A stretch of 64,000 nucleotides of DNA from Trypanosoma brucei (Eukaryota), in the NCBI GenBank assembly GCA_000002445.1, contig CP000069.1, forward strand, positions 384,001 through 448,000, read 5' to 3'. The notes under the pieces are model-generated. The model saw only the letters and a program-made list of their open reading frames with translations. It did no database searches and was not told where the DNA came from. The number at the start of each line of letters is the position of its first letter. Position 1 is the first letter of the stretch. A program made the translations under genes and the position numbers. Of this stretch, positions 31,382-32,734 are shown piece by piece.

Positions 31382-32734
31382 TCACTGGTGTGGGACCAGC
31401 CTGGCCGCCTTAGTGGGTGGGTTGGTGGAGCAATGATACTCAACGGACCCAATCAAAATGGGTATGCACTTATCCAGTGGCACAGTAATCGGCACAGAGG
31501 GACCGCTGCAGCTCCTGCTTAGTGGGTAGATTATTTGTGTAAGGTTGCTTGCGCCACATGTGGCGATCACTGAGCCGACGCCGGTAGTCTGGACGCACTC
31601 GCCAGTGGGGAAGGTGGCATGTGAGCAGCCTTTGGTACAACCCTTGCCCTCGCAGAAGTCCTGTGTAAAAGTTGCTGAAGGCGGCGGCGGTGGTGGTGGT
31701 GGTGGAGTGGGGCCTCCAACAACTGCGGAGGATACGGCCTGATTCATGAGACATTGGTTTGTGCCCTTCTCGATGCGGATGTAGCCGTCCTCGCCCCACA
31801 TGTTGCTCCACGAGTTTTTGATGATCCAGTAGGGTGGATTGCTATTATCATTGTAACCAACGAGGAGCACACCATGATCCAGTTGCTCGGAGGTGCATGA
31901 AGTCAGAATCCCACCGTTATAGTCCATAAAACTTGTGGCGTCAACGGCAATAGCAAGGGGACCGTTTTCTGCCAAATACGCGGCGATAGCGTCCTCATCC
32001 TGCGGTAAGTCAACATGGTCTGTTATCGCAGCACCGATCTCGTGACCATTCATCTGGCACTGTGGCTGCTCACCATTCCCAGAAACATAGGGATAGCTCG
32101 CCTCCGTGAATACGTTTCCACCGTTTGAATTTACTATCCAGTTGAAGGCATTGTCCATCAGCCCACCACCACAGCCAAAATCAATGGTATCACATGACAC
32201 TAGCATCTGCTCCGAGAGGGATACGAGAGGATTTCCTGCCACCTGCCACTGCCCTTCGATGTTGCCGATAGTTGAAAAGGCCCAGCACGAGCCGCACTGA
32301 CCCTGATCCTTCACTGGGGTCACTGCTCCCTTCTCACGCCAATCCACAGCTGCAGGAGCACGGCCAGTGGTTACGTTCACCGTCTTGCGTAGCCGCTTCT
32401 GCGCAGCTGCAAAGTAGGACGCGCCGTTACGGTAGCGTGCCCTGAACTCTTCACGTGTCATATCCGAGAAGGGTGTCACACCAAACGTTGCGTATGGGTT
32501 CGCCGCAGCTTGAATCTTCGCCTGCTCCATATTCTCCTCAAAGGCACGGAAGCGGAATGCTTCCTCCTTAGCATCCTTGTACACCTTGCCGTACTTCTTC
32601 TTGAACGCAGCAAAACGCATCTCCAATGACTCCTCCACGTGGAGCGACCCGAGTGCGACAGACGCAAGGCACGCTGCCATAGCCAGCAAGACAACGGGGA
32701 GACGTACAAAACGCACCATTTCTGTTCGAGGCAT
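31382..32734 (-). CDS. CATL: cathepsin L-like cysteine peptidase precursor, copy 7 of 11 (variant isoform)
   Basis: Tandem repeat unit with a 9-Pro hinge of type B. It carries [10 protein letters not shown] where the other copies have [10 protein letters not shown]. This comes from 5 substitutions within 10 nt at about 32169-32178. Confidence 0.9.

Follow-up and report, generated by a model that had tools for sequence, protein, structure and literature searches.

Why should one member of a tandem family of nearly identical peptidase genes carry five clustered base changes in its active-site loop? The question is raised by an array on chromosome 6 of Trypanosoma brucei brucei TREU927, where 11 cathepsin-L (TbCatL/rhodesain) genes lie in tandem on the minus strand of the window, as we term the whole 64-kb stretch of DNA analysed. 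The 11 units are arranged head-to-tail between about 20.8 and 40.0 kb with a period of 1764 or 1761 nt and, according to the ORF list and translations, each carries a single minus-strand CDS for a pre-pro cysteine peptidase of 449 or 450 amino acids (Table 1). The array was delimited from these ORFs; Tandem Repeats Finder, run with a longest period of 500, gave no report of it. All 11 translations match exactly the TREU927 entries AAZ11659-AAZ11669, annotated as 'cysteine peptidase precursor'. Precomputed Pfam assignments give the proteins an I29 domain (PF08246), a Peptidase_C1 domain (PF00112) and the kinetoplastid C-terminal extension DUF3586 (PF12131), and the catalytic Cys25 (CGSCW), His (LDHGV) and Asn (NSW) are present in every one of them. 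They are clan CA family C1A cathepsin-L-like peptidases of kinetoplastids (TbCatL). The array adjoins cysteinyl-tRNA synthetase and metacaspase genes, as in syntenic loci, and it is the known TbCatL (brucipain/rhodesain) array, Tb927.6.960-1060 (PMC6107107), with rhodesain, brucipain and TbCatL being treated as names of one enzyme (PMC6107107, among others). The edge of the array is marked on the upstream side of copy 11, the first to be transcribed (38429-40200), where the intergenic sequence has diverged completely from the spacer between units.

Table 1. Features of the TREU927 cathepsin-L array, in window coordinates, and states of the residue 61-64 loop in related arrays.
Feature	Position	Strand	Content or state	Basis
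Array of 11 cathepsin-L-like cysteine peptidase genes (TbCatL/brucipain/rhodesain orthologues)	20804-39778	minus		ORFs, translations
Copy 1 CDS	20804-22156	minus		ORF
Copy 2 CDS	22568-23920	minus		ORF
Copy 3 CDS	24332-25684	minus		ORF
Copy 4 CDS	26096-27445	minus		ORF
Copy 5 CDS	27857-29206	minus		ORF
Copy 6 CDS	29618-30970	minus		ORF
Copy 7 CDS	31382-32734	minus	450 aa plus stop; sole copy with F61/G64 (mature numbering); AAZ11665.1 / XP_845224.1 / Q585E5	translation identity
Copy 8 CDS	33146-34495	minus		ORF
Copy 9 CDS	34907-36256	minus		ORF
Copy 10 CDS	36668-38017	minus		ORF
Copy 11 CDS	38429-39778	minus		ORF
Mature-enzyme codons 61-64	32168-32179	minus	copy 7 TTT GGC TGT GGT (FGCG); other ten TCA GGT TGT AAT (SGCN)	
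Interval between flanking informative sites (CDS 853 and 201), maximum conversion/crossover tract	31882-32534	minus		unit alignment
Second mosaic patch, copy 8	33264-33323	minus	three linked substitutions (33264, 33266, 33323)	gambiense/equiperdum state
Same patch, copy 9	35025-35084	minus	three linked substitutions (35025, 35027, 35084)	gambiense/equiperdum state
TREU927 copies 1-6 and 8-11			S/N	TCA GGT TGT AAT
TREU927 copy 7			F/G	TTT GGC TGT GGT
T. b. gambiense DAL972			F/G in 6/6 tract instances	TTC GGC TGT GGT
GCA_003543875.1 (labelled T. b. equiperdum)			F/G in 8/8 instances	TTC GGC TGT GGT
T. evansi ALJ92831, one sequence			F/G	protein level
T. b. rhodesiense PDB construct			F/G	protein level
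T. equiperdum OVI, 1743-bp collapsed unit			S/N	TCA GGT TGT AAT
T. vivax tract instances	SOPI01000330.1 (GCA_021307395.1) 1352, 3074, 6517, 8247		DTKDNGCGGG x2, DTTDSGCSGG x2	

Alignment of the 11 units revealed five substitutions that are private to copy 7, at positions 32169, 32170, 32174, 32177 and 32178, and no other private difference in this copy, the flanking regions included. In their wider coding context they replace GAT TCA GGT TGT AAT GGT GGG (DSGCNGG) by GAT TTT GGC TGT GGT GGT GGG (DFGCGGG), such that Ser61 becomes Phe and Asn64 becomes Gly, by two base changes each, and the change in the Gly62 codon is silent. The original prediction, made from the letters of the window, had singled out this cluster, and its coordinates, quoted strings and translations all proved exact. 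It had, in addition, described the unit as otherwise invariant, which it is not: over the 1627 columns common to all 11 copies there are 14 substitution sites and one Pro-codon indel, so that nine further substitution sites and the indel vary among copies. When the variable sites were placed at random, five of the 14 fell inside 10 nt in about 5e-6 of trials. The clustering of the differences, one of them silent, on a near-identical background constitutes a signature of gene conversion or recombination, and the earlier view that five changes within 10 nt denote a tract-like event and not independent point mutations is upheld.

Among 95 cluster representatives of homologous proteins, Gly62, Cys63, Gly65 and Gly66 are invariant; no column of the stretch varies more than position 61 (3.03 bits), and variation is found at position 64 as well (1.93 bits, with Asn in 59 of the 95). 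The CNGG motif, which had been presented as conserved, therefore retains this status for its Cys and two Gly residues and loses it for the Asn. The commonest combination at positions 61 and 64 in distant kinetoplastid homologues is Ser/Asn (S/N), the state of the ten majority copies, which occurs in 22 of the 95 representatives.

As to the source of the tract, the original prediction had offered a divergent donor as one possibility; in this version copy 7 would have been converted recently, over about 10 nt, by a donor such as a paralogue or pseudogene elsewhere in the same genome, with S/N as the original T. brucei state. The clustering and the synonymous change would both be accommodated by such an event, as would the prevalence of S/N in distant kinetoplastid homologues. 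Yet a search of the window and the repeat unit with both tracts, allowing one to three mismatches, yielded only the array copies themselves, such that no template for either tract was found there outside the array; for the 21-nt Phe/Gly (F/G) tract, the rest of the 64-kb window and of the unit contains nothing within three mismatches. On the same evidence we rejected template switching inside the unit as well as a donor nearby. TbCatB (Tb927.6.560), the only other C1 paralogue known to us, was also rejected as an ectopic donor, because at the protein level it reads GDGCNGG and can neither supply F/G nor explain the Ser codon. In other Trypanozoon genomes, moreover, the arrays show F/G alone, so that an allelic source suffices, and a donor elsewhere in the genome is in our estimation highly improbable.

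The evidence for such an allelic source comes from the 90% cluster around the array proteins, with 24 members of which 15 were compared, together with the DNA of several assemblies (Table 1). The copy 7 tract lies one silent base, in the Phe codon (TTT versus TTC), from those of the gambiense and equiperdum-labelled arrays, and four of its five changed bases are identical in both. That residual difference implies that copy 7 was not simply duplicated from the F/G haplotypes sampled. F/G and S/N are both established natural alleles in Trypanozoon. A source haplotype for the tract thus exists, and the divergent donor of the original prediction proves to be an ordinary allele of the gambiense genome, the equiperdum-labelled assembly, T. 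evansi and the rhodesiense construct. With S/N present also in T. equiperdum OVI and F/G elsewhere, both variants are established allelic states, which is one half of what the original prediction had named as telling against it. The OVI clade has been reported to lie closest to Kiboko strains, TREU927 among them (PMC5566637), and GCA_003543875.1 is presumably strain IVM-t1, which groups with West/Central African T. b. evansi type B (PMC8549356).

These comparisons also bear on whether the copy 7 tract could be a sequencing error, an explanation to which we attach a negligible probability, given that five coordinated in-frame changes reproduce a natural isoform, with four of the five bases those of gambiense and equiperdum and with a protein that matches crystal sequences. 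Eight hypothetical proteins carrying the intermediate pairs S/G or F/N on 8- and 9-Pro and Pro/Leu backgrounds gave no match on exact look-up, a weak result as one extra difference would hide a match; nor did exact look-ups find any assembly record for the protein encoded by copy 7 or for the S/N 8-Pro protein. The gambiense array assembly (DAL972, FN554969.1) contains N runs and gene models truncated at 201, 220 and 404 aa, and its copy number is unreliable.

The original prediction had implied that F/G is the derived state, and the distribution among genomes suggests that this polarity is probably reversed. In a sample of five or six genomes and one construct, F/G is widespread and S/N, seen only in one East African lineage, is probably lineage-restricted. 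The polarity that we infer, with F/G older and S/N spreading, would mean that copy 7 probably holds the common allele, either never converted or brought back in, and that the unusual state is the one in the ten other units of the reference array. Against this, T. b. rhodesiense, which is also East African, has F/G, and the commonness of S/N in distant kinetoplastid homologues means that S/N could alternatively be a retained ancestral state. Polarising by outgroup codons was tried and abandoned: TTT GGC recurs in one F/G paralogue of T. congolense, as in copy 7, but the paralogues vary too much in their codons for a decision.

How far the exchanged segment may extend was approached by comparing 28 complete CDSs. 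Few sites vary among them, and on either side of the tract only CDS 201 and 853 are informative; the tract is therefore no shorter than 10 nt and no longer than about 650 nt. The conversion tract had been called short, which it need not be: 10 nt is only a minimum, given the distance to the nearest informative sites. Copy 7 carries C at CDS 853, the TREU927-type base, where gambiense and equiperdum have T, and any imported segment must consequently end before 853. Outside the tract copy 7 is a chimera, with a 3' part identical to copy 2 only and a 5' part, together with its upstream region, identical to copies 3, 8 and 9. Its affinity switches somewhere between the two flanking sites, an interval in which the tract also lies. 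Copies 8 and 9 contain a second patch with the gambiense/equiperdum state (Table 1), one of whose substitutions replaces Pro by Leu in the C-terminal extension (SGLSVP in place of SGPSVP). Units 1 (20804-22567) and 6 (29618-31381) are identical over the whole unit. The array is thus a patchwork of two haplotype families, as would be expected of gene conversion and unequal exchange among units or homologues.

Several further observations concern the units themselves. The identity of units 1 and 6, and of the 3' part of unit 7 with unit 2, hints at a higher-order duplication of a multi-unit block. The Pro-codon indel (31689-31691, with equivalents in copies 1, 2, 3 and 6) gives a hinge of 9 or 8 prolines; the units of 1764 nt are copies 1, 2, 3, 6 and 7 and those of 1761 nt are copies 4, 5 and 8-11, and a 10-Pro copy is present in gambiense. 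Private single substitutions occur near the CDS 5' end at 27389 (copy 4), which changes Met19 to Ile in the signal peptide, and at 37972 (copy 10).

The TREU927 evidence derives from one assembly, which is the single source for the position and number of the F/G unit, and tandem arrays are hard to assemble. An F/G unit that is real but belongs to the other homologue, or is misplaced, could have been incorporated when two heterozygous arrays were collapsed, in which case '1 in 11, position 7' would be an artefact. With about 99.5% identity among units, and complete identity of units 1 and 6, their ordering rests on very few markers; copy 7 itself looks chimeric, and the gambiense assembly of the same array has gaps and fragments. 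The chimeric pattern is, however, equally expected from real recombination, and we judge an assembly chimera unlikely. Even in that event both alleles are present in TREU927.

We consider it likely that two natural alleles of the 61-64 loop exist in Trypanozoon, and that the TREU927 array is a recombinational mosaic of them. F61/G64 (TTY GGC TGT GGT) is the 'rhodesain' form and S61/N64 (TCA GGT TGT AAT) the canonical papain-like form. We infer a recombinational mechanism, in which array units, and possibly homologues, would have exchanged sequence by gene conversion and/or unequal crossing-over to give the mosaic. S/N occupies ten of the units, and F/G would have survived in, or been re-imported into, one.

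The relation of the two alleles to the characterised enzyme could be established from solved structures. All six rhodesain entries, 2P7U, 2P86, 6EX8, 6EXO, 6EXQ and 7AVM, comprising three distinct sequences, carry FGCGGG, in agreement with what the original prediction had said of the crystallised T. b. rhodesiense enzyme, and in this array only copy 7 matches them at residues 61 and 64, the other ten having Ser61/Asn64. Over 215-216 aligned residues the crystallised proteins and the copy 7 mature domain agree throughout, save at residue 172 and, in 7AVM, at the active-site Cys, which is Ala there. The ten remaining TREU927 copies depart further, at 61 and 64. Residue 172 is Asn in every genomic copy compared and Ala in the crystals, where, according to the depositors, it results from an engineered Ser172Ala change that eliminates a glycosylation site (PMC2882330). 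The proposal that copy 7 corresponds to the characterised isoform is therefore sound for residues 61 and 64 and apparently breaks down at 172, and, with a parent clone reported to have Ser172, the rhodesiense parent was apparently not literally copy 7. Two Ser172 versions of the F/G protein gave no match by exact look-up in the sequence collection, where one extra difference would hide a match. Asn172 (YNDNSNPP) is present in all array copies and in the gambiense and equiperdum assemblies; it leaves no N-x-S/T sequon at 170-172, such that the glycosylation site may be specific to the rhodesiense clone. No T. brucei S61/N64 form occurs among the solved structures, the next-best PDB match being cruzain, and the ten-copy variant is, as had been supposed, structurally uncharacterised.

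In the papain fold the Cys63-Cys22 disulfide lies beside the catalytic Cys25, and Gly65-Gly66 bind the substrate backbone. Phe61 lines the S3 subsite of rhodesain, and docking models place the P3 aryl groups of inhibitors in pi-pi stacking on it, close to Gly66 and Leu67 (PMC9290002); in cruzipain subtypes position 61 belongs to S3 and position 64 to S1 (Ser64Gly) (PMC12079592). Replacement of Phe61/Gly64 by Ser61/Asn64 would open and polarise S3, add a side chain at the rim of S1, and leave S2 alone. The isoforms would accordingly be expected to differ kinetically, in P3/P1 preference and in the potency of inhibitors with P3 aromatic groups or with Phe61 stacking. Nothing suggests that copy 7 is expressed unlike its neighbours, since it has no private flanking changes.

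Rhodesain inhibitors have been optimised on a structure whose S3 is shaped by Phe61, a residue credited with pi-stacking on P3 groups (PMC9290002). In reference T. b. brucei, 10 of the 11 gene copies encode Ser61/Asn64, and the collapsed T. equiperdum OVI unit does likewise. This casts no doubt on the clinical target, as the human-infective material sampled, a single genome of T. b. gambiense and the crystallisation construct of T. b. rhodesiense, is F/G. A different pocket may, however, be probed where the enzymes or cells assayed come from animal trypanosomes that resemble TREU927 or OVI. The isoforms are not separable by standard tryptic proteomics because in every copy mature residues 18-181 contain no Lys or Arg for 164 residues, which places residues 61 and 64 on one tryptic peptide. 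RNA-seq reads can separate them, given that the alleles differ at five bases within 10 nt, and the allele-diagnostic strings at read level are TCAGGTTGTAAT, TTTGGCTGTGGT and TTCGGCTGTGGT.

The genes, the array, rhodesain Phe61 and the active-site isoforms of the Leishmania and T. cruzi arrays are already known, and the sequences are public. A literature search, with most subscription journals and the original cDNA and rhodesain papers outside its scope, found no description of a T. brucei S61/N64 isoform or of Tb927.6.1020 as distinct, and no kinetics or expression data for the S/N isoform; nor did it find any published remark that S61/N64 predominates in the array of reference T. b. brucei, although such a search cannot establish this as unreported. 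The finding is one of real but fairly ordinary isoform variation that matters mainly for inhibitor design relying on F61.

A further possibility, which would be superimposed on the allelic mosaic and does not exclude it, is that diversifying or balancing selection on the S3/S1 wall maintains the two isoforms and shields the tract from homogenisation. The variability of position 61, the highest in the stretch, against invariant Gly62, Cys63, Gly65 and Gly66, and the failure of exact look-ups to find S/G or F/N intermediates, are in accord with this, as are variants of the same loop in other trypanosomatids. The gambiense and equiperdum-labelled arrays are, on the other hand, monomorphic for F/G, so that two forms are not required, and the sites are too few for a formal test. 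We regard selective maintenance in T. brucei as quite possible while falling short of probable.

An independent parallel is found in T. vivax, where a syntenic cathepsin-L array, also next to cysteinyl-tRNA synthetase and metacaspase genes, contains copies of two near-identical classes, one reading DTTDSGCSGG and the other DTKDNGCGGG. Between the classes, five nucleotide differences are packed into 15 nt of codons 59-64, namely in codons 59, 60 (silent), 61, 62 (silent) and 64, and only three more occur over about 1030 nt, such that five of the eight differences, two of them synonymous, are clustered. The T. vivax classes are distinguished from those of T. brucei by their residues, S/S versus N/G together with T59K, and by their 2:2 ratio in the stretch compared. 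Paralogues of T. congolense have L/A, Y/R, F/E, D/G, F/G and Y/E at positions 61/64, and many other differences too.

Cruzipain of T. cruzi likewise forms a multicopy family, and among its subtypes differences occur at S3 (position 61, Phe61 included) and at S1 (Ser64Gly) (PMC12079592; PMC8440672). Two cruzipain sequences are identical over residues 1-320 save for S61F (DKTDFGCSGG versus DKTDSGCSGG), although most subtypes vary at many more positions, including S2 (67, 208), whereas the T. brucei catalytic domains differ only in this loop. In L. mexicana the CPB isoforms CPB2.8, CPB3 and CPB18 are encoded by tandem near-identical cathepsin-L-like genes with a C-terminal extension and are reported to vary at positions 60, 61 and 64; there Asn60/Asp61/Asp64 of CPB2.8 lie on the cleft wall, and isoform specificity is ascribed to few residues (PMC3836952, citing Juliano 2004 and Judice 2005). 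This comparison, drawn for Leishmania from the literature alone, sets charged residues with published kinetics against the Ser/Asn and Phe/Gly pairs of T. brucei, and the T. brucei variation at 61 and 64 falls at cleft-wall positions (60/61/64) of the L. mexicana CPB type, with subsite roles taken from the literature. Only tentatively would we extend the selective argument to a 59-64 loop that is a recurrent target of diversifying selection resisting homogenisation, such that T. brucei, T. vivax, T. cruzi and Leishmania would each have kept two specificity variants independently. On that reading, the reference T. brucei strain and the T. equiperdum OVI lineage would mainly express an S61/N64 enzyme with an S3 pocket unlike that of the F61 template used in inhibitor design. 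That this one loop varies in parallel in four trypanosomatid lineages provides a tractable case of function-bearing diversity persisting in concertedly evolving arrays.
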